Shown here: piece by piece, positions 9,688 to 60,900 of the stretch
Layout: every line of letters starts with the position of its first letter
Numbering within the stretch: position 1 is the first letter of the stretch
Assembly (NCBI GenBank): GCA_041489255.1
Contig: JBGPQV010000007.1
Coordinates: 4,006-68,005 of the forward strand
Direction: 5' to 3'
Length of the DNA stretch: 64,000 nt
From: Thermoplasmata archaeon
GTDB taxonomy: Archaea; Thermoplasmatota; Thermoplasmata; RBG-16-68-12; JAFNFQ01
Made by a program: the position numbers and the translations under genes
Notes under the pieces: model-generated
What the model saw: only the letters and a program-made list of their open reading frames with translations
Told to the model about the DNA's origin: nothing
Database searches by the model: none

Positions 9688-12600
9688 CTCCGATGAGGGC
9701 GTCCACCATCGGGATTATTTGATCGTCCTCGTAGCTCTTCAGCACTATCGCCTTGGCGGGACACTCCGCCGTGCATATGCCGCACCCGCGACACTTCGCC
9801 ATGTTCACTTCGGCGAGACCCTCCTTGTCGATAAATATGGCGTCGTATGGGCATATTCTCAGGCATGTCATGCAGCTGGAGCATTTCTCGGGCAGGACAT
9901 GCGCCACCACGCCTCCGACCTCGATGAACTCGCGCGAGATGATCGCCATGCCCCTCGCGGCCGCCGCACATCCCTGGGCAACAGAGTCGCCCACGTCCCT
10001 CGGGAACTGCGCACCGCCAGCGATGAATATCCCGCTGTTCGTCGCGTCCACTGGCGCGAGCTTCACGTGTGCTTCCTGGATGAAACCCTCGGGCGAGGAG
10101 CTGATCCTCAGGGCCCTCGTGAGCTCCTCGGAACCCCGGGAGGGAATCCCGCCGACGGACAATATGAGGAGGTCGAGCGTGAGATCGAGAGTCGACCTCA
10201 TGAGCGGGTCCTTGACGACGATTCTCGGCTTTTCGGCTATCGAAACTTTCGGCATCTCATCGAATGAATAGGCCACGAACCTGACGCCGAGGTTCTGAAC
10301 CTCCTCATAGAGCAGTTCCTGCGTCCAGGTCGTCCGCATGCTCTCATAGAGGACGTACACGTTCGCCTTCGGATATCTCCGCTTCAGCTCCCGCGCGGAT
10401 TTCAGGCCGCTCGCGCAGCAGAACCGCGAGCAGTAGCCGTTGCGGCCCCACCTCATGTCCGCGCACAGGAGGACGGCGATGTTCTTCGGATCCGCGACAA
10501 AGCTGTCCAGCTTTCCTCTCGTCGGCCCGGTCTTGGAGATGAGCCTCTCCAGTTCGGCGGTGGTCAGCACGGCCTTCGACTTCCTGTGGCCCCAGCGTTT
10601 CAGCTCTTCCCTGTCCCCCGCCTCGAACCCCGTCGCCACGACGATTGCGCCGAACTCAAGTTCGAAGTCCTTGGAGCTCAGGTCGATCGCGCCCGGCTTG
10701 CAGACCTTGACGCACTCTCCGCACTTCGTGCACGCCTCCGCGTCGATGTAGTACCTTGGCGGGTAGGTATCCTTCCTGTAGATTGCCCTCCTCGAGAACA
10801 GCCCCTCCTCGAATTCGTCCGGCACCTTGACCGGGCAGACCTTCGCGCACTCGCCGCAAAGGCTGCATTTATCGGAGACGAACTCGTTCGAAGTGGCGGT
10901 AAGTGTGAAATTGCCGACGTACCCCCCGACATCGTCGATCGTCGTCGACGTGTGCAGATGGAACTTGTCAGACTCTGAGAGTTCGCGGGTAATCTCGGAT
11001 ATCAGCTCCCCGCCAGGAATCTCCTGGGGATAGACCGCGCTGAACTTCGCGACATTCCCGCCCACGTATGGTCTCCTCTCGATGAGGTGCGTCTCGAACC
11101 CGTTCGAGACGAACTCCCTTGCCGCGGACAGCCCGGCGATGCCGCCGCCGATCACCACCGCCCTCGGCACGACGCCGACAGTCGTCACGTCGAGCGCCGA
11201 GAGGTTCGCCGCCCTCGCCGCTGACATCATGACTAGGTCCTTCGCCTTCGACAGTGCGGCGGGCCCATCAGGGTGGACCCATGAGCACTGGTTCCTGATG
11301 TTCGCCATGTCGAGGAGGAACGGGTTCAGCCCCGCCTCCCGCAGCGCCTCCTGGAAAGTCGCCTCGTGAGTTCTTGGGGTGCAGGCCGCCACGACGACCC
11401 TCGTCAGCCCCTTCTCCCTGATGTTCTTCACCATGTTCTTCTGCCCCTCCTCGGAGCAGGAGAACATGTTCTCCTCGACGTAGACGACGCCTGGCAGCTC
11501 CTTTGAATACTCCAGGAGCTCTTTGATGTCGACCACGGAAGCGATGTTCTTGCCGCAGTGACAGATGAAGATCCCCGTGCGTATCTCGTCTGTGGACAGC
11601 GCGGGATAGATTGGCGGCTCCGGGAACGACCTGTCCCCTTCCGTCTCCCCCGCCGCCCTCGCGGCCGCGCCGATGCCGCGGTAGGTCGAGTCGGTGATGT
11701 CCATCGGGCCGGCCACCATGCCCGCCAGATAGAGCCCGCCGCCAGTGCTGTCAAGCGGACCGCCGCTCGCGCGCGGCGCCTTCAGGAAGCCCCACTTGTC
11801 CGTCTCCAGGCCGAGCATCCTCGCGAGTTCACCCGTGTCGTCCCTCGGTACGAGCGCGACGTTGAGCACGACCATGTCGAACGTCTTCGCCTTGATCTTC
11901 CCCTCGTTGGTGTCCTCGTAGGTGACAGTCAGGCTCCCGTCGTCGTTCTCCGCGATCTCGGCGGGCCTGCCCCTGATGAACTCCGCGACCTTGTCCTCGT
12001 ACCTTATCCTCCTGTAGAACTCCTCGTAGCCCTTCCCCGGGGCCCTGATGTCTATGTAGAAGATCGTGACCTCGGTGGACGGGTCGTGCTCCTTGACGAG
12101 CAGCGCGTCCTTCATCCCGTACATGCAGCATACCTTCGAGCAGTACTCCTGCCCGGACTTGTGGTCCCGCGAGCCCACGCAGTTGATGAACGCGACGCGC
12201 TTGGGTTCCTCCATATCCGACATGCGCACGAGGCGCCCCCGAGTCGGTCCGGCGGCGTTGATGAGCCTCTCCAGCTCCATCGTCGTCACGACGTTCGGAT
12301 ACTTCCTGTAGCCGAACTCCTCGAGGGCGGTCGGGTCGAACGTCGTCGCCCCCGTGGCCACAACTATCGCGCCGACCTCGAGACGGACGGTCTCATCCGT
12401 CATCGAGAAGTCCACGCTCTTCGCGCCGCACGCTTCCGAGCACCTCTCGCACGCGATGAGATGCCCCTTGTTCAGGCACAGGTCCTTGTCGATCACGTAT
12501 GCCTGCGGCACGGCCTGCGGGAACGGCTGGTAGATTGCTTTCCTCGTCGAAAGCCCCAGGTCGAACTCGTTCGGGGCGGCGACCGGGCACGCCTTTGTGC

Positions 12601-37558: not shown

Positions 37559-38000
37559 GAACGCCTTTCATCCCAATCGGAATGGATTCCATCCCAATCT
37601 GAATCCTCTTGGGACAACTGTCCCAGACATGGGGGACAATTGCCCCCAGGTTCGTCCCGGTTGCCCCAGGCTCCATCCCGATTGCCCCGAGACCGCTCCC
37701 TGTTGTTCCGACTTCCATCCTAAAGATAGTATATGCAAGAATGTTCATCCGAATGAATGTCCCCATTGTCCCGAGTCCCGGGACAATCGTTCTCAAACCT
37801 ATCCCAGTTGTCCCCGGACCGATTTCAGTTGCCCCGGAGTCCGTCCCGGTTGTCCCCGGCTCTGGAGTAATTGCCCCCGAGTCCATCCCAATTGTCCGAG
37901 GCATCGGGGGACTGTTTTCGGGTCATCAGCTGTTGTCCGCGATTCAATTCCAATTGCCCCGAGACCTTTCCCGATTGTCCCCGCAGCCGTCCCAATCGTC
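37559..38000. repeat. tandem array of ~21 degenerate 21-bp units (consensus ~ catcccgaTTGyCCCgagac), strict phase
   Basis: TTG(T/C)CCC cores at 37609,37630,37651,37672,37693,37756,37798,37819,37840,37861,37882,37924,37944,37965 (steps of 21); one unit inverted (gggacaatcg 37771); one AT-rich unit (taaagatagtatatgc). Confidence 0.8.
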
Positions 38001-48978: not shown

Positions 48979-51477
48979 GCGTTTGACCGGACACACAACG
49001 GTCTCCCGGATGTGTTCGTCGTGAATATCACTGCGAACGGGAGCTGGCTCGGCTATTCCACTTTCATCGGCGGCGGCAGCTGGGATTGCGGGTTCGGCAT
49101 CACGCTGGACGAATCGCGGCTGACCTATGTCGCAGGTGAGGCATGGTCCGTTGACTTCCCCGTGACTCCCGGCGCTTTCGATTCGAACCTCAGCGGCTAC
49201 CGCGAGGGATTTGTCACGAAGCTCGTGACCAGGGCGAACACGCCTCCGGTCATTGTCTCGTTCACGGTGACTCCTCAGCCGCAGGCCGAGGGGAGCACGG
49301 TGACTTTCGATGTCGTAGCGAAAGACGCAGAGGGAGACAAGCTCACGTACGAATTCGATTTTGAGTCCGACGGCGTGTTCGAGAAGCAGGGAAGCGATGC
49401 GAGGGTGACCCATGTCTATGGAGACGACTTCCACGGGACAGCCGCTGTCCGCGTCAGCGACGCGAGCGACAGCGTGAATGCGAACGCACCGGTGACGATC
49501 ACCAATGTGGCACCCGCGATTTCCTTCACCTCAGCACCTTCGGGAGACGAAGCCGACATCCTGAATTTCAGTGTCCACATCACAGATCCGGGCAGCGACG
49601 ACATCACGGTGGGATGGTCTGGCTCATGCACCGGCTGGTCGTCGCCGACGGTTTATCCGAACGACCCCGCGAGGTATCCGGACCCGCATCCTAGCACCGC
49701 GGTCAATCCGCGCGATGTGACCAACGGGCAACGCGTCGTGTGCGGAGACAATGGAGTCTTCACATGGGCGGTGAGAGCGGAGGACGACGACGGAGGAGTC
49801 ACGAGGCTCTCCGGACGCTTCACGGTCGCGAACCTGCCGCCTTCGCTCGATGTCACACCGCCTCAGCAAGCGAGCATAGACGAAGGGCAGTCCGTCTCAT
49901 TCACCGCCACCGCAACAGACCCGGGCAGCGACGACCTGACGTTCAGCTGGTCGTGGGGGGAGGGCTCGAGCGAGAGCAGGACATGCTTCGACAACGGAAT
50001 CGGGCCAGATCCTCCGGATAGTCCGAACGGCACTTATCCATTCACCGCCACCGACACCGCCAACCACACCTATGGCGACGACGGGCTCTACAACGTCATG
50101 CTGACGGTGAACGATGACGATGGCGGTTCGACATCGTGGCAGGGGCAGGTCTCGGTTGCCAACATCGCGCCAGAGATCGAACCGTTCGGGCCGTTCTCTG
50201 CTGCCGAGGGGCAGTCATTGTCAATCATCGCCAACTCGACGGATCCCGGAAGCGACGATTTGACGTTCACTTGGACATTCGAGCTCGGCCCGACCGTCTC
50301 CATCACACATTTCAACGACGGAATCGGCCCTGACCCGCCCCAGAGCCCAGGTGGTATCTTCCCATTCGCCGCCGCCTGTCTGGTCAACCACACCTACGGC
50401 GACAACGGGCTCTTCACACTGACCCTCACAGTCACCGATGACGACGGTGGTTCAGCGACTTGGCAAACGGAAATCGAAGACTTGAATCTCCCGCCATCAA
50501 TAACTCCGTTCGGTCTGTTCGACCTGGACGAGGCGGAACAGATTTCCGTCACCGCACACGCCCTCGACCCCGGCAGCGATGACCTGACCTTCGTCTGGTC
50601 GTTCGAGTTCGGCCCGACCGTCAGCCACATATTCTTCAACGACGGAACGGGACCGGATCCGGCGAAGAGCCCGGGCGGCGTGTTCCCGTTCAGCTCCGAC
50701 GACGTTGCGACACATACATACGGAGACAACGGCATGTTCAGAATCTCTCTCACCGTTCAGGACGACGACGGCGGTTCTTCTTCCTATGAGACGCTGGTGA
50801 CAGTCCGAAATCTTCCTCCGACCATCTTGGACGCCAAGGTCTTCATGCTCGCGAATGTGACCCTGCGCGTAGCGGGCGAGAAATGGCACGATGTCATCCT
50901 CGACCTTTATGAGGGTCCCGAGGAGGTCGGCGAAATCCGAGTGGTCAGGTCTCCCGGGAGCCCGAACGACCAGACGGCGACAATCCGTCAGGCCGAGGTC
51001 ACTCTCAGCAGGCCGTTCTCTGCGGTCGCCCGTTACACGCCCGACGACGATCCCGTCAACGGTCAGCCGAATGGGGCTGACTCCGCGTGGCTCATTATCG
51101 ATTGGGAGGACGGCGACACCACGGTCTTTCATCATACATTCAACGTTCAGCATACCGATACATACGTCTGGACCGTCAACAACCTCAGTGCCTACGCGGT
51201 CAATCAGATTGTCCATCTGAAAGCCACGGCCATGGATCCCGGCAGTGACGATCTTTCGTTCCTGTGGGACTCTGGAGACGGGAGGACGTTCGCCGCCATC
51301 TATTACAATGACGGAATCGGACCAGACCGATACCCGAGCCCAGACGTGAATCCGATTACCGCCACCAACGAGGCGATCCTTGTGTACGGTGCCACTGGAA
51401 CGTACGCGATAAGACTGATTGTGACCGACGACGACGGAGGTTCGGTCGACCTCCTCCTGCCGATTTCCATAGGTTGA
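48979..51477 (+). pseudogene. continuation of the same reading frame after TGA: 1 more SBBP repeat + ~9 PKD-like domains (possible pseudogene/readthrough)
   Basis: same frame as upstream CDS; repeat pattern runs seamlessly across the stop (…EFPTTP*AFDRTHNGLPDVFVVNITANGSWLGYSTFIGGG); PKD-like repeats (DPGSDDLTF.WS…). Confidence 0.7.
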
Positions 51478-51612
51478 GAACGACAAGCGGAATTCTGGCG
51501 GGCATTCTCGGGCAGCATGAGGAATAGCGCACCGGGGCTGGGAAACTTCCACCTCCCGCCAAAGATTTAGGTAAGCGGAAATGTCAAATACCCCCGTTGT
51601 CGTCGGTGCGAC

Positions 51613-52377
51613 GTGGCGGATACGGTCACACTGCTTCTGATTGCCGCAGCCGGCATGTCCACGGCCCTCGGTGGCATCTTGATCGTCGCGATTCGCCGCC
51701 TGACGCACCGCATGCACGACACGATTCTGGGCCTCGGCGCCGGCATCATGCTCGGAGTCTCCGTCTTCGATCTCCTCCTCCAGCTGGGCGAGCACCGGAG
51801 TGAGGACTGGCTCCTCATCGCCGCCGGGATCGTCGGCGGAACGGCAGTGGTCGCCGTCCTAATCGGAGTGTTCCGCAAGATGCCCCTCCCGATGCCCTTC
51901 GTCAAGAACTCCGCGCCCGACACGACGGGAGCCGCGTTCCTGCTCGTCATCGCCCTGATGATCCACAATCTGCCGGAAGGACTGGCCACGGGCATAGGCT
52001 ACGGACACGGTCCGACCACCTTGGGCAACAGCATCGCTGCTTCAATCGCGTTCCAGAACATCCCCGAAGGGCTGCTCGTTGCGGTGGCGGTGCTCGCCGA
52101 GACTGGTTCGAAGCGCGCGGGCTTCAGCTACGCGGTGCTCAGCGGCGCCGTCGAGCCCGTTGCGGGATATGTCGCGTACTTCGCCCTGTCAGTCTCCCCC
52201 GCAACCGTCGGAGTCGTTTCGGGCTTCGCGGCGGGTGCGATGCTCGCAGTCGTCTTCTTCCAGATGATACCGGAGAGTCACAGGCACGGCTACAGAGTGC
52301 CTGCGACTGCAGCTCTCGCAGCCGGGGTCCTGCTGGTCGTGGCGGTGAACCTAGCGCTCGGGCAGATCAGATTATGA
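51613..52377 (+). CDS. ZIP-family metal (Zn/Fe) transporter
   Basis: HNLPEGLATG and FQNIPEGL motifs, 8 TM. Confidence 0.8.
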   Translation: MADTVTLLLIAAAGMSTALGGILIVAIRRLTHRMHDTILGLGAGIMLGVSVFDLLLQLGEHRSEDWLLIAAGIVGGTAVVAVLIGVFRKMPLPMPFVKNSAPDTTGAAFLLVIALMIHNLPEGLATGIGYGHGPTTLGNSIAASIAFQNIPEGLLVAVAVLAETGSKRAGFSYAVLSGAVEPVAGYVAYFALSVSPATVGVVSGFAAGAMLAVVFFQMIPESHRHGYRVPATAALAAGVLLVVAVNLALGQIRL

Positions 52378-52593
52378 GCGTTAGCCACCGACTATCTGCG
52401 CACTCTTTTGGCCGATCACAGAGAAAGGAGATCAAGTCGGGGAATCTCTGTCTTATGATATTACATAAATGCGACGGTTCAATCTGAAGTCTCATGTCGA
52501 CCTCGGGCGCACGCCTTGGGTCGCCGTCCGCAGGCACGCCAATCACGTCAGGTTGATGAAGAGCGAGTCCCATATGATAATACGGAGTCAAAC

Positions 52594-53034
52594 ATGTCAA
52601 TAGACGAGAGCGAGAGCGCATGGGAGCTGATGGGGAAACGGTATATCGTTACCCCGGAGCGACGGGCCTCCGATGCAGGACCGGACGAGGACCAGCCCTG
52701 GCCAAAAGGGATCGCCGAAGACCTCGCGAGCGACAGTAGCCTCATCGCCAGGAACGAGGACCGCATGATATTCGCTGAGAAGCAGAGCGCGGAAATATGG
52801 CGGAAGCGCATGAACCGTGAGGCGCTCGCCTCGGCGGAGAATTGGGACGTCAGAGAAGTGAGGATAATCAGGAGGGACGGGGCGCTGGCGAAGGCGATCG
52901 AGGAAGCTGGCGTCACACCCATATCATGCGAGGACTACTATGTCCTGGACACGGACTTCCTCGAGCGCGGCCTCGCCCTGGAACTGGTCATGGCGCTCAG
53001 GAAGAGGATCGAGTCCTTGGAGCGATCCGAGTAG
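52594..53034 (+). CDS. hypothetical acidic protein
   Basis: ORF with internal ATG 52594 (MSIDESESAW…); no recognisable motif. Confidence 0.35.
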   Translation: MSIDESESAWELMGKRYIVTPERRASDAGPDEDQPWPKGIAEDLASDSSLIARNEDRMIFAEKQSAEIWRKRMNREALASAENWDVREVRIIRRDGALAKAIEEAGVTPISCEDYYVLDTDFLERGLALELVMALRKRIESLERSE

Positions 53035-53067
53035 CGATTTCCCTGAACTAGTCACGCGAAGGGCTCA

Positions 53068-53454
53068 ATGGCGAAGACTAACCTCCCTCTAGAGGTGATA
53101 TCGACGCCAGTGTTCTACGTCGTGGACTACTATTCGAAATATGACCGGACGGGAGAGTTCATAGCCATCGTCAAGTCGGACAAGGGCCGCAGACTGATCC
53201 AGGACGTCGAGAAGGAGACGGGAGCGGAGTTCCGCGGGACATACTTCCCGCTCATGGGGTTCAGCGAGTACACCGCCGAGGACTGGCGGGAGCTCCCGGA
53301 CTACGGGGCGCTGAGCAAGTTCCGGGATTCGCAGGCGTGGAACAAGGCGCTCCAGGAGTTCAACCAGTTCTACGACAACGCCCACCCGTTCAAGGCAAGA
53401 TTATTGGGGTCCATCAGCGACGTTAAGGCGACCGGGCTGCGCGAGACGAAGTAA
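53068..53454 (+). CDS. hypothetical protein
   Basis: 128-aa ORF between two ZIP genes; no recognisable motif. Confidence 0.4.
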   Translation: MAKTNLPLEVISTPVFYVVDYYSKYDRTGEFIAIVKSDKGRRLIQDVEKETGAEFRGTYFPLMGFSEYTAEDWRELPDYGALSKFRDSQAWNKALQEFNQFYDNAHPFKARLLGSISDVKATGLRETK

Positions 53455-53477
53455 GGGTGGAAGACCCCATCACAATC

Positions 53478-54239
53478 TCAGACAGAGAGAAGCAGTCCAG
53501 TGAAGTACATCAGCAGGATGCCAAGGGCGATTCCCGCAAACATGCTCCTCGGGGAGGTCGACAGTCTCAGGAGTTCGACCGCGACGAACAGCAAGGCACC
53601 TCCCGCCACAGAGAAGAAGAGGACGCCCAGGAGTTCTGAGTATGCCAGGGAGCCTATCACGCTCCCTATGATCGTCGGGAACCCCGCGATGAAACCCATG
53701 GCCAGAGGCTGTCTCAGCCGCATCGGCGTGTCGGACACCGGCCCAGCAATCCCGAGCCCCTCGGTCCCGTTGTGGAGCGCGAACCCGACAACGAGGGCGG
53801 TTGTCAGTGCGAACTGACCCGCCCCATAAGCGGCACCGAGGGCGAGCCCTTCGCCGAAGTTGTGCAGTCCGATTCCTAAGGCCATCATGTAGGCGGTGAG
53901 CAGCTTGGAGTCGCTTCCCGCCAAAGCGGAAGACCCGGGCGAGGTCGGTGCAACGATGCTCCCTCGCCGATGATGGAATAACAATGCGGGACCTACGAGC
54001 CCCAAGGTCAGACCGATGACGAAAAGGAGCGGACCGACTGGGGACACCTTGGCCATTTCCACGGATTCGCCCGTGACGTCAGCGAAGAGGAACATGAGTA
54101 TTCCGGTGGAAAAGCTGAGGAGCAGGCTTCTCCAATGTGGAGGGAGCCTCCTAAAGAGTGGTATTGGCATGAGCCCCAGGTAGACTGGTACCAAACCGGC
54201 GAGGATCCCGATCAGGATGGGGTTTGCGATGTCCGCCAT
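53478..54239 (-). CDS. ZIP-family metal transporter (second paralogue)
   Basis: HNFGEGLALG, HNGTEGLG motifs. Confidence 0.8.
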   Translation of the reverse strand: MADIANPILIGILAGLVPVYLGLMPIPLFRRLPPHWRSLLLSFSTGILMFLFADVTGESVEMAKVSPVGPLLFVIGLTLGLVGPALLFHHRRGSIVAPTSPGSSALAGSDSKLLTAYMMALGIGLHNFGEGLALGAAYGAGQFALTTALVVGFALHNGTEGLGIAGPVSDTPMRLRQPLAMGFIAGFPTIIGSVIGSLAYSELLGVLFFSVAGGALLFVAVELLRLSTSPRSMFAGIALGILLMYFTGLLLSV

Positions 54240-54308
54240 TGAGACAGTTGCTTACTGCATCTGCCTACTTCAAGTCTTGCGGTTTAGAGCTACCTAATTC
54301 TCTGCGCC

Positions 54309-54440
54309 TCAGGATTCTCGAATCCCGTCCACAGCCCGCTCCGCTTCCTTCTTCGGCTCCCTAGCCTCGGATAGCGCCCGACAATCGCGCAGTCCGCCCC
54401 TGCCATGATCGCATCCGAAGCGCATCAGTCGGGCGGCGAC
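54309..54440 (-). pseudogene. degenerate duplicate of pyrF 3' end (…CRALSEAREPKKEAERAVDGIRES*)
   Basis: ~85% nt identity with 1-nt indel to 55752..55860 (pyrF C-terminus …GRAIYEAKEPRKEAEQVIEGIR…). Confidence 0.65.
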
Positions 54441-55180
54441 ATACACTCTCTCCATGATGTGGGATCCTCGGACAACTGTGGGACATCCGGGGACAATCGC
54501 ATGAGATCCACGAGCAGTTCGATGCAACTTTCAGAAATCCGTCATGAACCCTCCAACGCTCCGCGCGCAACCCCAAACAATCGGAAGGACTCCCCCAACG
54601 AACCGCGCGGGATTCAAGACAATCGATAGATATCTCCGGATGGCCAAAACCCACTTCCAGACGATTGTCCGGGACTTCCAGACAACCCTCTGGGACCTCC
54701 AGAAGGATCTCTCGCGGTCCCAGACGACCATTTTGGACCATCAGAGGTCCGAATGGGGGTCCGGACGACCCGAACCACCCGCCAGACGACTCTCTGATAC
54801 CTCCAGAGGATCGTTCGGGACCTCCAGAAGACCGTCTGGCGGTCGCGGAGGGCTGAAGGAGGGGGGTTAGAGCCTTCTGACACTTCCAGACGACTGTCTG
54901 GGACTAGCTTCGGACCGTCTGACGGTTCCTCCGGACTTTCTGGCGTTGTCAGAAGACCGTCTGGCGGTTCCAGACGACTGTCTGGGACTCGCCTTGAATC
55001 CGCTGGATAAGGGATTGGATCGGCTGAAGATGCGTTCGCGTGCTCTCGCGGTCCGTCAGGACCCGCTTGATATTGGATTGAGTCGGCTGGAGGTGTGTCG
55101 GAGTGTTCTCAAGGTCCGCGAGGGTCGTCCGGGATTGGACGCGGATCGTCGAGAGGTGGGATCCAATCGGCTGATGGACG
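54440..55180. repeat. tandem array of ~35 degenerate 21-bp units (cores ggacaatcg / ccagacgactgtctggga), strict phase; related to array 37559..38000
   Basis: caatcg at 54494, 54578, 54620 (multiples of 21); units at 54654, 54675, 54717, 54780, 54801, 54822, 54885, 54948, 54969 … all in phase. Confidence 0.8.
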
Positions 55181-55261
55181 CTCTTCCGTGTCTGTTGCAA
55201 TCCTGCACACAGACCGGTCTTGTTCGCGGCGGGAAAGAATCAACAGAGGCTTTCCTCGAAT

Positions 55262-55302
55262 GAAGAGGAAAAGAAAAAAATGCCCCCCTTTTGGCGGGGG
55301 GC
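55262..55302 (-). terminator. GC hairpin + T-tract (minus-strand), candidate pyrF terminator
   Basis: gcccccc-ttttggc-ggggggc stem-loop; minus strand continues attttttttcttttcc. Confidence 0.35.
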
Positions 55303-55714
55303 TTGGGAAACGCGGGTTCGCAACCGCCAATGGACGCTACTTCATCGCTTCCTGGACCGGGACCGGCAGCGGCTCCGCAGCCGTCTGATCCCCCGCCTGC
55401 CTGACCTTGCTCCGGAGGCGCTGGAAGACCTTCGCCGACTCGCTGTTCTTCTCCACCGCCGCCATCATCATGTCGATCGTGCCCGATGTGACGACGTACG
55501 CGCGGTGCATTGTCGTGGGATTCTGTACCTCGCCGCTGTCAAAAGCCGACTACGAGTCAGCCAACGGGTGGATGAGGAATCTTGCGAATGTCGCAGGCAT
55601 TCGTTTCCGAGATGTTGTCTATTTCGAGGGCCAACCATCGGTATTCGACAATGACTCTAGAAACGCTGGGCCACCAGCAAGACGGAATCGTGTGCATAAC
55701 GGAAAGTGGATATC

Positions 55715-56362
55715 CTAAGATCGGAAAGTTACGCGAATGCCTTCAATGACCTGTTCCGCTTCCTTCCTCGGCTCCTTCGCCTCGTATATCGCCCGCCCCA
55801 CGATCACGTAATCCGCCCCTGCTCTGATTGCGTCGGCAGCGCTCCCGCCCTGCGCACCGACTCCAGGCGTCGCGATGCGGAGACTCCCGACAATCTCCCT
55901 CATCCTCCTAATCCTTTCCGGCCTCGTGGCGGGAGCGATGATGCCAGTTGCCCCGACCTTCACCGCCATCCTCGCGATCTCCTCCGCTATCGGCGCGCTG
56001 AACCTCTCAGCCCCGGGGTGGCTCATCTCCGTCACAACGAACACGTCGCCCTTGGCGGCATCCACGCACGCTTTCACCGAGTCCTCGCCTGGGAAGCCGT
56101 GGACGATCACGCCCGATGCCCCGCGGCGGAAAGCCTCCTGCACGATGAGGCGGTTGGTGTTCGGGATGTCGGCGACCTTGAAGTCGCAGAGCACGTCCGA
56201 CTCCTTCGCGAGCTTTGTGATGATTTCGGGTCCGACCCCTAGGATGATCGGCCAGTTGACCTTGATGGCGTCAACGAGGTTTTTCACTTCGCCCGCGATT
56301 TTGAGCGCCCTCTTTTCCTCCACGACATCGAGCGCCAGAATCAGATGAGAGTCGAGCTTCAT
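55715..56362 (-). CDS. pyrF: orotidine 5'-phosphate decarboxylase
   Basis: LALDV…, DFKVADIPNT, catalytic K/D pattern, GVGAQGG phosphate-binding end. Confidence 0.85.
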   Translation of the reverse strand: MKLDSHLILALDVVEEKRALKIAGEVKNLVDAIKVNWPIILGVGPEIITKLAKESDVLCDFKVADIPNTNRLIVQEAFRRGASGVIVHGFPGEDSVKACVDAAKGDVFVVTEMSHPGAERFSAPIAEEIARMAVKVGATGIIAPATRPERIRRMREIVGSLRIATPGVGAQGGSAADAIRAGADYVIVGRAIYEAKEPRKEAEQVIEGIRVTFRS

Positions 56363-56386
56363 CGCCCGCCGTCTAGGTGCACGCGC

Positions 56387-56393
56387 GATATAA
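56387..56393 (-). promoter_or_regulatory. TATA box for pyrF
   Basis: minus-strand CTTATAT 25-31 nt upstream of ATG 56362. Confidence 0.45.
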
Positions 56394-56406
56394 GCGTTTT
56401 TCCGGG

Positions 56407-56541
56407 CTAGCGGGCAAACCTTCTCTCCTCACCGAGGGGCTTCGTCGGCGCCTGCTTGCAGCACGCCGAGCAGTCCCGGCACCGCCAGTCCGCCGCGCAC
56501 AGCACTGCGACCGTGGTGCCGCATGACGGACAGTCTATCAT
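56407..56541 (-). CDS. candidate 44-aa zinc-ribbon protein (MIDCPSCGTTVAVLCAADWRCRDCSACCKQ…)
   Basis: CPxC…CRDC…CC pattern; could be a GC-rich chance ORF. Confidence 0.25.
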   Translation of the reverse strand: MIDCPSCGTTVAVLCAADWRCRDCSACCKQAPTKPLGEERRFAR

Positions 56542-56654
56542 GTTGCCCTTACGGCATGCCTAGAATGTATACCTTGGCGATTCCACGAGGATTTTTGGGG
56601 CGGAGCAACTATTAAGTAAGATGCCTACAATCCTTCTCGCGAGTTCCAAGAGCC

Positions 56655-57209
56655 ATGCCCGAAAACCGCCACGTGAAATCGAAGGTCTGCCTCGTCGGCG
56701 AGGCAGCGGTCGGCAAGACCTCCCTCGTCCGCCGCTACGTCGTGGACGAGTTCGACGACAAGTACATCACCACCCTGGGGGCGAAGGTCTCCAAGAAGGA
56801 GATGGAGTACGACTACCCGGAGAAGGACATCCACGTGGACATGGACATGACCATTTGGGACATCATGGGCGAGAAGGGGTTCAGGGATCTCCTCAGCGAC
56901 GCTTACTTCCAGGGAGCGAAAGGGGTGATCGCGGTCTGCGATATCACCCGCATATCGACCGTGAAGGAGCTCGACGACTGGATCAAGTCTGTCTTCGAGG
57001 TGGTCGGCGAGGTCCCCGTGGTCTACGCGGTGAACAAGAACGACCTGCGGGACGAGGTCATGCTGATGTTCACGGAGAAAGACCTGAAGCAGTGGACGCG
57101 TGCCTTCGACGCGCAGTACTTCTACACCTCGGCGAAGACGGGGGAGAACGTGGAGAAGGCGTTCAAGGCGCTCGGGGCCGCGATCGTGGCGAAATCTGGC
57201 GTGTTATAG
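56655..57209 (+). CDS. Ras/Rab-like small GTPase
   Basis: G1 GEAAVGKTS, G3 WDIMGEKG, G4 NKND, G5 SAK. Confidence 0.8.
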   Translation: MPENRHVKSKVCLVGEAAVGKTSLVRRYVVDEFDDKYITTLGAKVSKKEMEYDYPEKDIHVDMDMTIWDIMGEKGFRDLLSDAYFQGAKGVIAVCDITRISTVKELDDWIKSVFEVVGEVPVVYAVNKNDLRDEVMLMFTEKDLKQWTRAFDAQYFYTSAKTGENVEKAFKALGAAIVAKSGVL

Positions 57210-57298
57210 GCTCTGAGAATCACGGCGGAGAATCTAAATAGCCTCCTTTTAGCTGGCTTGACGCTTCTGCAGTCAGGGGGCCCGCGGGAACGAGCACT

Positions 57299-57841
57299 GT
57301 CGTCAAGGAACTGAAGAGCAAGATATGCCTTGTCGGTGAGAAGAGCGTCGGCAAGACATCCCTCATACGACGCTTCGTCCTCGACACATTCGACGACAAG
57401 TACGTGGTGACCGTCGGCACAAAGATCACGAAGAAGGAGGTCAACGTCTTCAAGCCGGAGCTTGAGGGCGAGGTCCGCGTCGACATGACGATCTGGGACA
57501 TCATGGGCGAGAAGGGGTTCAGGGAGCTCCTCAAGGACGCTTACTTCTACGGGGCGAACGGCGTCCTTGCTGTGGCCGACCTGACGAGGAAGAAATCGCT
57601 CAACGACCTGGACGACTGGATCGACGGCGTCGAGAAGATAGCCGGCAAGGTGCCTATATTCATCGCGGTGAACAAGTGCGACCTGATCGATCAGGCGCAG
57701 TTCTCGCTAAAGGAGGTCTCGCAGATGGCGAAGGCCTTCGATTCCGAATTCCTTCACACTTCGGCGAAGACGGGAGAGGGGGTCGAGCAGTGCTTCAAGA
57801 AGCTAGGGGATTTGGTGGTCGAGCATCAGCTTGGCATGTAG
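57299..57841 (+). CDS. Ras/Rab-like small GTPase (paralogue); no canonical start codon upstream of G1 in frame
   Basis: G1 GEKSVGKTS, G3 WDIMGEKG, G4 NKCD, G5 SAK; frame open from stop at 57239 but no ATG/GTG/TTG before the P-loop. Confidence 0.65.
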   Translation, partial: VVKELKSKICLVGEKSVGKTSLIRRFVLDTFDDKYVVTVGTKITKKEVNVFKPELEGEVRVDMTIWDIMGEKGFRELLKDAYFYGANGVLAVADLTRKKSLNDLDDWIDGVEKIAGKVPIFIAVNKCDLIDQAQFSLKEVSQMAKAFDSEFLHTSAKTGEGVEQCFKKLGDLVVEHQLGM

Positions 57842-57992
57842 GCATTGTTAGATGCGCCGCTCCGACATACTTAAATATGCGGAGGTGGATGAAAAGCCCC
57901 CTCGGCGCAGGCGCGGGATTGCCCGGCATATGGAAGCTCTTTGGTCATTGTGTGGGGGCTTCTGACCCGGGAAGCGAGAAGGGAAGGCGATC

Positions 57993-60900
57993 ATGAGGCG
58001 AGACACGGAAAGACGATGGTCGGGCATTGCCATCCTCCTAGTCCTGACTCTGCCGGGAGGCTTCATCGGTTCTTTCGCGCCGATGGCGGGTGGAGTGCCG
58101 TCTGTCAAGAACCTGGAGACGGGGAACAAGACGGTGAGCTGGAACTTCACTGATCCTGCGGACTACTCTTTCACGAATGTCACTTTGGCGGGTCGACTTG
58201 ACCAGACCAGCGACGTGCTGACGCAGGACGCGACTCAAGATCTAGTGGCTAATGGTACGTGGGATAACACAAACCTCACGATATCTGGCGGATCAATTGC
58301 TAGTCGCGAGTTCAGAAAGGAATTGGTCATAAACGGGACATTTGACGCGTCACCACCATGGAGGTACGCAAATGGAACGGGCGGCAATCTGTCCGCTGAA
58401 TGGAGTGCAGCTAATCGGACAGCGAGCTACGTCCATAGTCGAGGGGCGTCAGCCGCTGTACAGTTCGATGAGATGGATGCCGTAGCAGGATGGACTTACT
58501 CCTCCACAGGCACTCCCTCCCCGCTGGGAGGCATATCACTGGACAATGTTTATTTCAAAGAGCCAACAGCGTCGATTCTCCTAGATGTGAGATTTAGGGG
58601 GGATCCGACCGGCTGGGCCGCTGCGAGACGGCTTGGCCTCTGGGATTGGTCATCCTACAATATGCTATCCGTGTGGCTGAATACAACATACATAGCTCCA
58701 GAAGTTCCGCTCGCCTTTGTCAATTTGGTCGCCGGCGGATCGCCCTGTGATTCGGCTCTTGCTTGGATGAAACCCGGCTGGTCAAGGTATTATTTTGATA
58801 TCTCAGGATGCTCAGGCCTGACGGCCGTGACGGATGTTGATTTCCGTTTCACTAATGTGACTGGTAACTCATGGGAGCAGATATGGGTCGATGATGTCTG
58901 GCTCTATCATTTCGACAACATCACTCAATCGGCTAGCATCTCTCAGGACATTCTGAAGATGAACTTCACTGCCCCTAATCCAATGACGCTCCTTCTGAGT
59001 TTCGACTACAAGGTTGATTCCGCGGCTAATCTCACCGACGCGAACCTCACCGCCTGGATCAACGGCGCTCTTCTGTCAATCCCGCCAATCCCCGCTAACG
59101 CGCCGATCGGTTGGACGCACGCGAGCTACGACATCAGCGTCGCCCTGACCGGGAAAGGGCTTTTCAATCTATCATTCATCGCAAGCCTATCACTGTTTAC
59201 TCCTTATGCCACATCAATGAAAGTGGAGATAGACAACACTTCTGTGACCGTCCCCGACTACCATGGGGGCATCTACGAATCCGTTCCGTTCAATCTTGGC
59301 CACGCCGTGCGCTTCGACAACATCTCGTTCGCATCGTCTAGCCACCCGGACACGAACGTCACGGTCGAGGTCCGCGGCGGTTGGTCGAACCAGACGGACG
59401 ACGGCTCATGGACTCCATGGGAGCAGCACTTCAATTCGTCAGAGATTCTTCTGAACAATTCCAGCGCCAGTTTCCTTCAGTATCGCGTGATCCTGAACAC
59501 CACGAACGCCAGCGCGGCGGTCTCCTTCGACTGGATCAAGTTCGAATTCCACAGATACGTCGATGGCGGCAGCGTGCAGACGGTCGACTGGTCTCCGCCA
59601 GAGACTCTGATCGGTTGGAGGCGGTTCGGGGCGAACTACACCGTTCCGCCGTTCACCTCAGTTGATTTCTACATCTCCAACGACACAGGTTCCATCTGGT
59701 ATCCGGTCATGCCTGGCGATTCCCTCGATACGCTTGGCGGCAACACGATCAGCATCAAGGCGGAATTCGAGACCCTCAACACGACATTCACGCCCGAGTT
59801 GTTCGAGCTCAACGTGACCTATGAGTTCCTCGGGCCGCTGGACAAGATCACCGTGAGCCCGGCGACATGGTCAGGCACCGCGGACGATCAGATATCATTC
59901 ACCGCCAAGGCGAACGACCAATGGGGCCACCTGATCACGCTATTCACCCCGATTTGGACCGATGATGATCCTGCCGGCAGCGTCAATCCCAGCGGCCTGT
60001 ATCAGGCTGGTACAGAAGGGAACTGGCACGTATGTGCCTCTTCTCTGGGAATCGTTGACTGCGCCAACGTGACCGTCACTCACGGAAGGTTGGTCCGCAT
60101 CGATATCAGCCCGACCTCTGCCTTCGTGATGGCGAAGACCACCCGCCTTTTCAGCGCTTCGGGCTTCGACGTCTTCGGCAACGACGTCCCCCTCACGGAC
60201 ACTTCATGGACCACCGATGTCGGCAACTTCAGCAGCCTCACGCCGGCAAACGCCATTTTCATGGCTATCGGAGTGCCCGGTGTGGGCAGTGTCTGGGCCA
60301 AACACAATTCCGCGTCAGGCCTCCTCGTGGCGCGGGCGGACGTGACAGTGACCGCATCGAACACGGTGGTCATCCAGGGCCTCGTGCCGAACCAGAGTAA
60401 GCCCGAGGACTCCCCGCCGTGGCAGCTGAATCTGACGCCCTACCTGCCGCCGGGCCCGAGTCCAGACGACCTGATGTGGTACCTCGAGGACAAGAACGAG
60501 GCGCTCTACACGGTCCTCGGCGAGAGACGCTTCGGCCAGCACGTCCTCACGTTCTATCCCAAGCAGGACGCGTTCGGCGACAATGACGTGACCCTCTGGC
60601 TGGAGGACCGTCTCGGCGCGAGAGACTCTCAGCCCCTCCTTGTCTCCCTGACGCCCGTGAACGACCCTCCGGTGTTCTATGACGTCCCACGCTTGCAGAT
60701 CAAGGCTGGGGTCTCCTACGTATTCGACTACTCGCCTTATGTCTACGACGTCGACACCCCCAAGGACATGCTCATCCTCAGCACCGACGACCAGACGCAC
60801 ACGAAGACCGTCGGGCTCACCGTCAATTACACCTACGATTCGAGCTACGCAGGACAGACGGTCATGGTCCGCTTGAGAATATCTGACGGCTCAAGTTCAT

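Follow-up and report, generated by a model that had tools for sequence, protein, structure and literature searches.

A diverged duplicate of the pyrF 3′ end flanks a non-coding insert with a phased repeat array in an uncultured archaeon

Results

Two copies of the pyrF 3′ end bracket an insert

The window examined here is a 64,000-nt stretch of a Thermoplasmata archaeon contig. Near one end lie an intact pyrF and, downstream on the same strand, a ZIP-family metal transporter gene (ZIPa), separated by an insert (insert X) and by a second, degenerate version of the pyrF 3′ end (Table 1). We refer to the duplicated segment within the working gene as copy A, and to the degenerate version next to the ZIP gene as copy B. 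A blastn search of the window with the pyrF 3′ end aligns 54319–54423 (copy B) to 55734–55842 (copy A) with 82 of 109 positions identical (75%, or 78% over ungapped columns; E 3e-16) and one 4-nt gap. No other non-self match within the whole window is significant (runner-up E 0.12), which rules out chance similarity. A repeat search of the window recovers the same pair (families D15 and D11), offset by 4 nt. A sequence-only reading of this DNA had described a duplicate of ~110 bp (54329–54440 against 55752–55860) at ~85% identity with a 1-nt indel. The duplicate is real and its similarity significant on pairwise alignment, but the best alignment lies ~10–17 nt further left, and identity is 75–78% with a 4-nt deletion.

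That deletion removes one GGGC unit of GGGCGGGC from copy B and shifts the frame. Copy B is translated in two frames as ASDAIMAGADCAIVGR and ALSEAREPKKEAERAVDGIRES, the latter ending in a stop, where the PyrF counterpart reads SAADAIRAGADYVIVGRAIYEAKEPRKEAEQVIEGIRVTFRS followed by its stop. A weaker extension of ~30 nt with an 8-nt indel may carry copy B to ~54452 and copy A to ~55868. Copy B thus consists of a secure core (54319–54423), a probable extension to ~54452, and an old tail running to a premature TGA (54310–54312); it holds about 35–45 pyrF codons plus the old tail and stop region. Identical runs between the two copies are today only 11–13 nt long.

An NCBI MAG contig and a JGI contig agree in this arrangement, and both junctions are also covered, with 100% identity, by Logan contigs of three other sequencing runs (55481–56887 and 49908–54716). 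The source samples are JGI 3300052989, SRR35962388, SRR35961412 and SRR29605724. Two Logan contigs stop at 55466–55481, which is also the point of divergence of L183. Five independent assemblies, together with carriers in other lineages, rule out an assembly artefact.

Table 1 Features of the pyrF–ZIP region (window coordinates)
Feature	Coordinates	Strand	Description and basis
ZIPa, ZIP-family metal transporter gene	53478..54239	-	Pfam Zip, E 3e-11
Ancestral pyrF–ZIP intergenic region	54240..54309	-	Directly follows the pyrF stop codon in L186, L178 and L173
Copy B, displaced original pyrF 3′ end, pseudogene fragment	54310..54452	-	blastn and multiple alignment
Insert X	54424..55733	.	1310 nt between the copies; absent from L186, L178 and L173, present in L183 and L170
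Spacer array-remnant	54453..54643	.	GGGACAAT-type motifs
21-bp-phased array	54644..55005	.	Alternating CCAGA / TCTGG half-sites; repeat search
63-bp repeats	55000..55180	.	About 2–3 units, motif CAGCCGA..CAATCC; TRF period 63, score 140
Terminator-like hairpin	55282..55302	-	GCCCCCC-GCCAAAA-GGGGGGC plus T-run; 7-bp G:C stem, pyrF direction
57-codon ORF, annotated as a gene	55337..55510	-	C-terminal fragment of an uncharacterised protein family of ~123–143 aa
AT-rich segment	55591..55732	.	142 nt, window lineage only; 47% G+C versus 60.5%
Copy A, duplicated segment in the working pyrF	55734..55842	-	Covers roughly the last 40 codons, up to ~6 codons short of the stop
pyrF, orotidine-5′-phosphate decarboxylase	55715..56362	-	Intact, 215 aa; Pfam OMPdecase, E 1e-48

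Empty and occupied sites among relatives

Three relatives (L186, L178 and L173, at ~95%, ~92% and ~89% nucleotide identity to the window) have empty sites, in which the ZIP gene follows pyrF after 54–59 nt and no duplicate is present. ZIPa adjoins pyrF in all three and is the original downstream neighbor. Each has one pyrF end, to which both copies in the window align. In two further relatives, L183 and L170, both the insert and the remnant are found again, the latter with its 4-nt deletion. From these empty sites and carriers it therefore follows that the downstream copy is the original pyrF end, now pseudogenised. The comparison of pyrF–ZIP synteny bears out the earlier description of an insert flanked by a gene-end duplicate, and the occupied arrangement without a duplicate, named beforehand as contrary evidence, was not seen in either carrier.

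A nine-sequence alignment places the copy B tail and the DNA that follows it collinear with the empty-site tail and intergenic region. The 4-nt deletion and ~12 substitutions are common to copy B of the window, L183 and L170, and the shared substitutions are spread 2/4/5 over the codon positions. The changes hit residues invariant in every functional PyrF sequence examined; Y>C, V>A and Y>S, for instance, fall within the GADYVIVGRAIY motif, which does not vary otherwise. Judged by this alignment, copy B is a decayed pseudogene. Shared changes counted by eye fall at 12/85 in its left part and 4/55 in its right part, a difference that is not significant; a foreign origin of the left half was rejected on these counts, and because the changes resemble decay.

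PyrF orthologues in relatives share 85–95% protein identity. The left part of copy A is 86–93% identical to the relatives' copy A or single pyrF end, and its last ~25 nt (the tail) are only ~50% identical to the relatives' ends. Five different tails occur among PyrF proteins 89–95% identical to that of the window, differing sharply even between relatives 93–95% identical overall. The divergence of the copy A tail could reflect relaxed constraint, and not necessarily foreign origin. Tails also vary among the empty sites.

Four-fold-site divergence from the window is 0.13–0.20 for close relatives and 0.33 for L173, and copies A and B are now 22–25% apart. These figures indicate that the insertion event is old. 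Occupied and empty sites are intermixed across the population, which is mosaic and recombining. Even against L173, at a four-fold-site divergence of 0.33, the intergenic region keeps ~90% identity, and it is a probable ZIP promoter or leader. The GTDB species representatives were uninformative, since their PyrF identity does not exceed 65% and in no case does a ZIP gene lie close to pyrF. A first comparison with L085 had made the ZIP gene seem part of the insert. This was rejected: the L085 contig ends inside h128, and the L174–L177 branch shows the order pyrF, h128, ZIP.

The insert is a relic with no element genes

Insert X has no match among phage records, plasmid records or a viral contig collection, and no Rfam covariance model matches 52000–58000 at E up to 1. 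None of its ORFs is under coding constraint. Pfam finds no integrase or transposase in insert X, in the L183 and L170 versions, or among ~45 window ORFs; the termini share only short, chance-level inverted repeats; and neither the window nor the fetched relatives' loci contain a second copy. We found no donor genome with X beside pyrF in another context, and no circular X. A transposable element of the IS or MITE kind finds no counterpart in these data, which lack inverted repeats, transposase and further copies of X and show a duplication of at least 105 nt.

A tandem segmental duplication reaching from the pyrF 3′ end into the ZIP gene, with the inner copy diverged beyond recognition into X, would put a second pyrF 3′ fragment directly before the ZIP gene, as is seen. 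However, X has no similarity to the ZIP gene or its neighbors at the nucleotide or protein level and contains a fragment of an unrelated gene family, and since copies A and B retain 75% identity, a ZIP copy of the same age should be recognisable. We regard this origin as very improbable.

The pyrF-proximal junction holds a different cassette in the window, L170 and L183. In the window it is the AT-rich segment, which is flanked by a 7-nt direct repeat (CATTCGC, 55584–55590 and 55733–55739) and from which the present pyrF takes its final five codons and its stop. This segment is absent from L170, and has no second copy and no terminal inverted repeats. In L183, 55467–55745 are replaced by 455 nt with a nucleotidyltransferase gene. 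Besides the one long remnant, a second short tail remnant is possible at ~55585–55613, although doubtful.

The 57-codon ORF gives 18 phmmer matches (best E 1.6e-10) and aligns to residues ~73–128 of full-length family members. Between the window and L170 it shows 4 synonymous versus 23 non-synonymous codon changes, with differences distributed 12/8/15 over the codon positions. On this pattern it is probably a decaying fragment of a longer gene. We rejected both this ORF and that at 55407–55718 as genes, for at 74% nucleotide identity all six frames give ~55% amino acid identity, and codon-position bias is absent. The predicted secondary structure of the 57-codon product is compatible with a ribbon-helix-helix fold, and its structural model is a helical hairpin. 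The idea that it binds the array as a ribbon-helix-helix protein was set aside as unsupported, since it has no Pfam match and no significant solved-fold match, and the part that would form the strand is missing in L183. Alignment of a full-length member along L183 proved spurious outside the C-terminal part. Full-length members of this 128-aa family were found only on short contigs, of 0.9–3.8 kb, and none in the viral contig collection. The family alignment is too diverse for a pattern scan.

The terminator-like hairpin is kept with changes in L183 and lies inside a 228-nt stretch missing from L170. Outside the array half-sites, insert X evolves at about the neutral rate. A replication origin was considered and dismissed, as the window has no G+C-skew turning point and the ORFs scanned include no Orc1/Cdc6. 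Insert X is a relic comprising the truncated 3′ half of a small gene, a terminator and two kinds of repeat. The 21-bp array and hairpin terminator that the sequence-only reading had placed between the copies are both there; its further statement that the cargo is the repeat array itself stands for the presence and conservation of the array, but leaves out the truncated gene fragment and the terminator.

A phased array with conserved half-sites

The array contains 15 exact half-sites in the window and 21 in L170, at spacings of 10, 11, 21 and multiples. They lie on one helix face, about one per turn, with alternating orientation. The half-sites, the only part of insert X tested for conservation, differ at 0–6% of their columns versus 11–29% for the other columns in 12/12 pairwise tests (Fisher p down to 1.6e-9 in comparisons with L170). 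Unit number changes via in-phase indels of 21 and 42 nt. Many half-sites have no palindromic partner 11 nt away, and changes are uncompensated, which points to sequence recognition and not to hairpin structure. Selection clearly appears to keep the half-sites intact, as judged from these alignments, and the array is most likely a multi-site binding array for a putative dimeric DNA-binding protein. A search of 2.1 Mb of related DNA gave no further occurrence of the motif, and no gene for a binding protein (Rep, ParA/ParM, or ParR/ParB-type) lies beside the array.

As to the cargo alone, the array might instead be a neutral minisatellite or a series of structured RNA hairpins. Indels of one and two units resemble slippage, the insert overall diverges at an approximately neutral rate, and each full unit is able to form a 6-bp hairpin. 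A neutral array, however, would not show half-sites ~2- to 24-fold better conserved than the intervening bases in all pairwise tests, nor would whole-unit homogenisation yield conservation specific to half-sites. The partnerless half-sites and uncompensated changes speak against RNA hairpins, as do the absence of an Rfam match and the retention of both motif orientations, which fits recognition of double-stranded DNA. We consider a neutral or RNA array unlikely.

Two further regions adjoin the array. The 63-bp repeats have a detected core at 55000–55118 and are 83–95% identical to those of L170, L183 and L184. The motifs of the spacer also build the other 21-bp array of the window (37600–38000), with which the spacer shares 22 ten-mers (expected 8.4 ± 4.5). 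Recombination between the two 21-bp arrays was examined as the cause of the L184 variant and rejected, since the downstream genes of L184 (TBP and others) are absent from the window.

Similar duplicates at other loci

The sequence-only reading had counted the pyrF locus as the third insert in the window with a gene-end duplicate. This holds for pantoate kinase, whose 3′ end is duplicated at 6055–6132 and 7147–7224 (75.6% over 78 nt), but at coaBC the duplicated segment is the gene start and promoter and not a gene end (403–522 and 4033–4152, 87.5% over 120 nt). At coaBC, window positions 1–517 are 99.4% identical to L189 and 4033–6132 only 89.5%, and the remnant end is therefore a junction between the DNA of two lineages. 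L189 has remnants of its own at the coaBC and pantoate kinase genes, around different cargo, and at coaBC the end points of two independent events lie no more than 7 nt apart. Gene-end duplicates in the lineage are about 73–135 nt long and enclose different cargo. Five such sites occur in ~85 kb of the clade versus two in ~1.8 Mb of other fetched DNA.

Discussion

Origin of the insert

The arrangement at pyrF is probably the product of 3′-end displacement by recombination, and not of transposition or integrase action, as far as sequence comparison can tell. What the sequences show is that, in an ancestor of the lineage, pyrF stood ~55 nt ahead of the ZIP transporter gene, and that roughly 1 kb of foreign-context DNA (X) was joined into it about eight codons short of the stop, leaving two copies of the preceding ~105–135 nt. 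The upstream copy remained in the working pyrF, whose new C-terminal tail is now encoded by the insert. The downstream copy, still joined to the intergenic region and the ZIP gene, is the old end, which lost its function and decayed.

Two versions of this process can be envisaged. In the first, termed homology-facilitated illegitimate recombination, DNA from a related genome would anchor on the conserved body of pyrF while its far end is joined illegitimately inside the resident gene; a process of this type that moves the 3′ end of a resident gene downstream has a precedent (PMC5361080). In the second, a circular intermediate with a pyrF fragment and X would enter through a single crossover, as in the circular-intermediate model for displacement of Rhs C-terminal regions (PMC2935791). 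Later events of the same kind at the pyrF junction would have trimmed or replaced pyrF-proximal X, which is now lineage-specific. A sequence of 105 nt would not separate the two versions from each other, nor from a long staggered-break duplication. Illegitimate end-joining alone does not predict the clustering of sizes at ~80–135 nt or the near-coincident coaBC ends.

That last possibility would make the duplicate a long target-site duplication, produced by staggered breaks ~105–135 nt apart or by a replication template switch, for example on the lagging strand: fill-in synthesis would have made identical copies, and the unused one decayed. Archaeal Okazaki fragments are ~100 nt long. Both copies indeed trace to the same stretch of the empty-site pyrF end, the changes in copy B resemble pure decay, the A–B divergence fits a single old event followed by neutral decay, and the duplicate sizes at five or six independent events lie close together, at 73–120 nt and possibly up to 135. 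We know of no prokaryotic insertion mechanism that gives target duplications of 100 nt, however, and count this against it. The tails also run opposite to its expectation, that of copy A being ~50% identical to empty-site tails versus ~64% for the decaying copy B tail, by our own counts over ~22 nt and hence in a small sample. In addition, the remnant end at coaBC coincides with the switch from 99.4% to 89.5% identity to L189, where two lineages meet. A target-site duplication is accordingly given little credence.

Displacement by recombination must also be weighed against site-specific integration, in which X would be what remains of an integrative element whose attachment site mimicked the pyrF 3′ end. 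A tyrosine integrase would have crossed over in a short core, the element would have supplied the tail, and the integrase, with most of the element, would later have been deleted. This would account for an intact gene with a replaced tail and the displaced end at the far side of the insert. A 21-nt block, GGAGCCGAGGAAGGAAGCGGA, a possible former core, is present in all six A and B copies, singleton changes aside, and in 2/3 empty sites, L173 differing by three bases. The greater number of stem changes in the left than the right part of copy B would fit as well, as would X being a trimmed relic with a truncated gene, and the small contigs that hold the full-length relatives of that gene could be small elements. 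Against this, the integrase is absent from X, from its L183 and L170 versions and from the window ORFs scanned, and nothing like X or the 128-aa family was found in the viral contig collection or in the phage and plasmid records. The changes in the left part of copy B include invariant residues and a frameshift, as in plain decay. Moreover, the duplicates at the coaBC start and the pantoate kinase end have unrelated cargo and slightly different ends, so that homology-driven events fit better than one site-specific recombinase. We judge an integrative element unlikely.

A bolder joint reading holds that a lineage-specific, strongly enriched and possibly dedicated terminus-insertion process leaves duplicates of about Okazaki length, and that X is a portable, non-coding protein-binding array retained by the host in a role of its own. 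In its array part, X may be centromere- or iteron-like and derive from small, hard-to-assemble elements encoding the ~128-aa family. Taken as a whole, we hold this reading to be improbable.

Comparison with known systems

The closest parallel to the favored displacement by recombination is found at the Rhs, CDI and T6SS effector-immunity loci of bacteria, where, as here, an intact gene is followed by a dissociated conserved fragment with the old tip (Jackson et al. 2009, PMC2935791; Kirchberger et al. 2017, PMC5361080). At both, close relatives share a conserved gene body but differ in the tip of the working gene, there are possible signs of successive events at one junction, and a dedicated recombinase is absent. 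The mechanisms proposed for those loci, a homologous anchor with an illegitimate junction or a circle with one crossover, are the ones favored here. Unlike those loci, pyrF is a housekeeping enzyme gene in an archaeal host and not a polymorphic toxin gene, it is followed by one long remnant instead of a string of orphan tips, and in place of a toxin tip and immunity gene, the inserted DNA consists of non-coding repeats plus a gene relic. With no toxin tip in the cargo, diversifying selection on tips is not the driver at pyrF. The locus thus belongs to the same class of mechanism as Rhs and T6SS displacement, without belonging to those gene families.

Replacement of a gene 3′ end by integrative elements is known from e14 and phage 21 at icd of E. 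coli and from archaeal elements at tRNA genes. The pyrF locus resembles these in having an insert in the 3′ end of a functional gene, a diverged copy of that end beyond it, and empty sites. In contrast to them, no integrase or other element genes were found, and the insert is 1.3 kb and non-coding. Identical att cores are not seen today, the longest identical runs between the copies being 11–13 nt, but a common block of 21 nt can be reconstructed for the ancestor. In insertion-duplication (pop-in), well known from pneumococcal and archaeal genetics, a circle with a short homologous fragment enters by a single crossover. The targeting fragment then lies on both sides, as at pyrF, and a pop-in insert can be lost by recombination between the copies. 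Unlike a laboratory pop-in, the pyrF event is natural and old, with copies 22–25% apart, and a circular form was not observed.

Many short sites phased at one or two helical turns (10.5 or 21 bp) also make up iteron arrays and the repeat-type centromeres of plasmids, parC of R1 being an example. The array shares with them its helical phasing, a predicted line-up of bound proteins on one face, and variation by whole units. It differs in being chromosomal, in the alternating orientation of its half-sites, and in having no Rep, ParA/ParM or centromere-binding gene beside it.

Implications

As a scar of displacement, the pyrF locus is of an ordinary, familiar kind. Displaced ends are well described at bacterial polymorphic toxin loci, and here one is seen on a housekeeping, essential gene of an uncultured archaeon. 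A diverged gene-end duplicate of ~100 nt is a simple signature by which insertions and recombination junctions may be recognized in metagenome-assembled genomes. For annotation, the 57-aa "gene" of the public record calls for correction, as it most likely represents part of a longer gene that is decaying. The scar recurs at several other genes of the lineage, around cargo that differs between strains; if this is genome-wide, it would show how DNA enters these genomes without disrupting the recipient gene. The 1.3-kb non-coding cargo has persisted for ~0.2 neutral substitutions per site with its phased half-sites intact, and the array is a concrete candidate for a DNA-binding system in a group without genetic tools.

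A duplicate of the pyrF 3′ end

The 3′ end of pyrF has a single non-self match in the window (blastn; runner-up E 0.12), located beside a gene for a ZIP-family transporter, and a repeat finder recovers the same pair as families D15 and D11. These copies, A within working pyrF and B as a downstream remnant, bracket an insert of 1310 nt (54424-55733). Translated in two frames, copy B reads ...DAIMAGADCAIVGR / ALSEAREPKKEAERAVDGIRES followed by a stop, which is plainly the PyrF C terminus. A sequence-only reading had claimed this duplicate at ~85% identity with a 1-nt indel, bracketing a 21-bp array and a hairpin. The duplicate is confirmed and both features lie between the copies, but measured identity is only 75-78% and the indel is instead a loss of 4 nt (one GGGC unit) and so remains a frameshift. 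That reading had also proposed checking the junctions and the pyrF-ZIP synteny of relatives. The arrangement is identical in an NCBI MAG contig (GCA_041481165.1) and a JGI contig, and Logan contigs from three other sequencing runs span both junctions at 100% identity, which rules out an assembly artefact.

Features of the pyrF insert, its surroundings and related duplicates (window positions unless a relative's locus is named)
Feature	Position	Strand	Description
pyrF	55715-56362	minus	Pfam OMPdecase, E 1e-48
ZIPa, ZIP-family transporter gene	53478-54239	minus	
Copies B / A of the pyrF 3′ end	54319-54423 / 55734-55842		82/109 identical, one 4-nt gap, E 3e-16
21-bp array	54644-55005		between copies
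63-bp repeat	55000-55118, possibly to 55180		between copies
Strong hairpin and T-run	55302-55282	pyrF strand	between copies
57-codon ORF	55337-55510		
Old pyrF-ZIP intergenic region	54240-54309		
h128	53068-53454; L174 1842-2198; L085 2458-2592		hypothetical 128-aa gene
Small GTPase genes	56655-57209 and 57404-57841		68% nt identity
Other 21-bp array	37600-38000		
coaBC-start duplicate	403-522 / 4033-4152		120 nt, 87.5%; insert 523-4032
Pantoate kinase 3′-end duplicate	6055-6132 / 7147-7224		78 nt, 75.6%
coaBC-start remnant in L189	L189 7074-7189		116 nt, 90%
Pantoate kinase end remnant in L189	L189 10745-10861 / 11549-11665		117 nt, 82%
pyrF-proximal replacement in L183	L183 9618-10072		455 nt
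Variant region in L184	L184 ~10940-11400		
Distant repeat pairs	L163 452-561 / 1800-1907; L079 19688-19760 / 20468-20540		copies 0.7-1.2 kb apart

Relatives with and without the insert

GTDB species representatives are too distant for comparison, with a best PyrF identity of 65% and no ZIP gene near pyrF. Protein searches from ZIP and PyrF, followed by retrieval of the matching contigs, yielded a graded identity series. The loci L186/L187 (GCA_017885655.1; ~95% nucleotide identity to the window), L178 (~92%) and L173 (~89%) are empty sites, in which pyrF is followed after 54-59 nt by the ZIP gene. The lone pyrF end of the empty sites matches both window 55842-55750 and window 54423 onward. L183 (~95%) and L170-172 (~90-92%) carry the window's insert and remnant, the 4-nt deletion included. 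The insert-with-duplicate reading is thus supported by the synteny of L186, L178 and L173, all of which lack the insert. More distant loci (L174-177 and L085, ~84-86%) have no long duplicate and carry h128 between pyrF and the ZIP gene, which explains why a first comparison with L085, in which the ZIP gene seemed part of the insert, was misleading. The position of h128 is not fixed across lineages; in the window, L186, L183 and L178 it comes after the ZIP gene, in L170 it is partial, and L173 lacks it.

A nine-sequence alignment settles which copy is original. From its tail (GATTCGAGAATCC...) onward, copy B is collinear with what the empty sites have there, the tail, stop region and intergenic region, and is therefore the original pyrF end. 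Copy A is functional up to a 21-nt block (GGAGCCGAGGAAGGAAGCGGA) common to the copies; past this block its tail is ~50% identical to empty-site tails (~22 nt, counted manually on the alignment), and the last codons and stop of working pyrF come from inserted DNA. All three B copies share ~12 substitutions and the 4-nt deletion. The shared changes are distributed 2/4/5 over codon positions; among them, Y>C, V>A and Y>S fall in GADYVIVGRAIY, a motif unvaried across all the functional PyrF sequences examined. They represent decay of a dead fragment, predating the split of the three carrier lineages.

Copies A and B differ by 22-25%, which dates the event to roughly the depth of the L173 split. 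Four-fold-site divergence from the window is 0.13 for L186, 0.14 for L183, 0.20 for both L178 and L170, and 0.33 for L173. Despite the age of the event, carriers (window, L183, L170) are interleaved with empty sites (L186, L178). Identity along the region is also strongly mosaic (window versus L183, 0.99 in GTPase 1 and 0.91 in the pyrF body). Together, these patterns show that the insert is an old polymorphism, present in some and absent from others of a group of lineages that recombine.

The two neighbouring GTPase genes are tandem and Ras/Roc-like. The second, called at 145 aa, starts at profile position 31 without the P-loop region; similarity to the first at the DNA level nevertheless extends to 84 nt upstream of the called start, and relatives call it at 144-195 aa.

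Contents of the insert

No gene in the insert is under coding constraint in the comparison with L170, where identity is 74% for nucleotides but ~55% for amino acids whichever of the six frames is read, and codon positions show no bias. The 57-codon ORF, a gene in public records, has 4 synonymous versus 23 non-synonymous codon differences from L170. By exhaustive profile search it matches residues ~73-128, the C-terminal part, of an uncharacterised 123-143-aa family (18 matches, best E 1.6e-10) with no Pfam or PHROG match. The C-terminal-only match and the codon changes indicate a truncated gene relic followed by its own terminator. Full-length members of this mostly helical family (proteins P0363-P0378) were found solely on contigs of 0.9-3.8 kb, with truncated versions on long contigs; the short contigs could be small elements or assembly-breaking regions.

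Within the 21-bp array, CCAGA half-sites alternate with TCTGG half-sites at a spacing of 10-11 bp, strictly phased at 21 bp, and unit number varies by in-phase indels of 21 or 42 nt. For each ordered pair of window, L183, L184 and L170, half-sites called in the first genome were scored in the second. Mismatch is 0-6% at half-sites versus 11-29% in other array columns, in 12 of 12 pairs (Fisher p down to 1.6e-9 versus L170, with several pairs among the three closest relatives above 0.05). Many half-sites have no palindromic partner, changes are uncompensated and no Rfam family matches, which argues for selection on half-site sequence in double-stranded DNA. A putative phased binding array for a dimeric protein best explains these features. 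The motif array has no other occurrence in the window or 2.1 Mb of fetched relatives, and is absent from the viral contig collection.

The L184 contig is 99.35% identical to L183 over 10.9 kb, yet its repeat array differs noticeably, and ~100 nt past the 21-bp array it departs from the shared sequence and reaches a TBP gene in place of the remnant and ZIP gene. Either the array was the site of a genuine rearrangement, or the assembly jumped via a second copy of it. The other 21-bp array of the window, made of ATTG(T/C)CCC / GGGACAAT motifs, sits within a ~900-nt intergenic stretch ahead of the gene for an ABC-transporter ATPase and has 22 10-mers in common with the insert (mainly 54466-54499) versus 8.4 +/- 4.5 by chance.

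Junctions and other gene-end duplicates

Each lineage has its own version of the pyrF-proximal insert sequence. At the window junction, a 142-nt AT-rich piece between 7-nt direct repeats (CATTCGC) provides the present stop codon; L170 lacks this piece and also 228 nt including the terminator. The L183 segment replaces the pyrF-proximal 279 nt, is joined to the rest of the insert at window 55466, and encodes a 108-aa MNT-type nucleotidyltransferase (Pfam NTP_transf_2) on the minus strand, convergent with pyrF, which has yet another tail (AAEKAINQIREALDM). Logan contigs from two different runs both stop at 55481, 15 nt from this divergence point, hinting at coexisting junction variants in those samples. 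The pyrF junction has clearly been rebuilt at least twice, and every rebuild removed some of the older insert at its pyrF end.

The sequence-only reading had counted two other inserts flanked by gene-end duplicates in the window. This holds for the pantoate kinase 3′ end, whose copy lies beyond a 317-aa membrane-protein gene and retains its reading frame and stop codon, but the coaBC duplicate is of a promoter and gene start (first ~25 codons) and sits upstream of its insert. That insert (3.6 kb, low G+C of 51-54%) carries a 1017-aa adhesin-like gene and is missing from the relative L189. The window is 99.4% identical to L189 over 1-517, coaBC-start remnant included, versus only 89.5% over 4033-6132, a switch which shows that DNA of two lineages meets at the remnant end. 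L189 has its own remnants at both genes around different cargo; its cargo at the pantoate kinase end is a 182-aa gene of opposite strand. All these duplicates have their outer edge at a natural gene end (stop codon or TATA-like promoter) and their inner edge 80-135 nt within the gene. Duplicates of ~100 nt occur at five sites in ~85 kb of the clade versus two in ~1.8 Mb of other fetched DNA, an apparent enrichment in the window's lineage that is rough, the regions sampled not being equivalent. The two in the ~1.8 Mb of distant loci, those of L163 and L079, are the only other isolated, diverged direct repeats of ~70-110 nt there.

Discussion

Nothing at the pyrF insert points to a dedicated mobile-element mechanism. 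Neither an integrase nor a transposase is encoded in it or among ~45 window ORFs, which are housekeeping genes; convincing terminal inverted repeats are absent, and the duplication is far longer than known transposon target duplications. Tandem duplication is excluded, because the insert has no relationship to the ZIP region. Two rivals are unlikely, an element whose integrase and other genes were lost after insertion and, slightly less probable, a long duplication by staggered breaks or template switching.

The window duplicates show the same pattern as Rhs and T6SS loci, where it is described as C-terminal or effector displacement. In one proposed mechanism, homology anchors the DNA at one end and the far junction is illegitimate (PMC5361080); in another, a circular intermediate with a conserved-gene fragment enters by one crossover (PMC2935791). 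We favour such recombination-driven displacement, with some reserve, as the best explanation of the pyrF scar: incoming DNA would either anchor by homology and then join illegitimately at its far end, or enter by single crossover from a circle bearing a gene fragment. Simple illegitimate joining does not explain the narrow size range of the duplicates, nor two independent coaBC events ending 7 nt apart.

PyrF would remain intact with a new, poorly constrained tail; tails differ sharply among PyrF proteins 89-95% identical to that of the window. Transcription of pyrF probably ends at the hairpin in the window and L183, and the ZIP gene would retain its own conserved upstream region. The old intergenic region, unusually well conserved (~90% identical to L173 despite the four-fold-site divergence of 0.33, and partly kept in L174), contains a palindrome (ACTTGAAGT) and is probably a ZIP promoter or operator.

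Scars like that at pyrF are a commonplace result of recombination; unusual here are the housekeeping gene, the archaeal host and the non-coding cargo. The interest of this one rests on the phased array, maintained by selection, and on an apparent excess of ~100-nt gene-end duplicates in the lineage.
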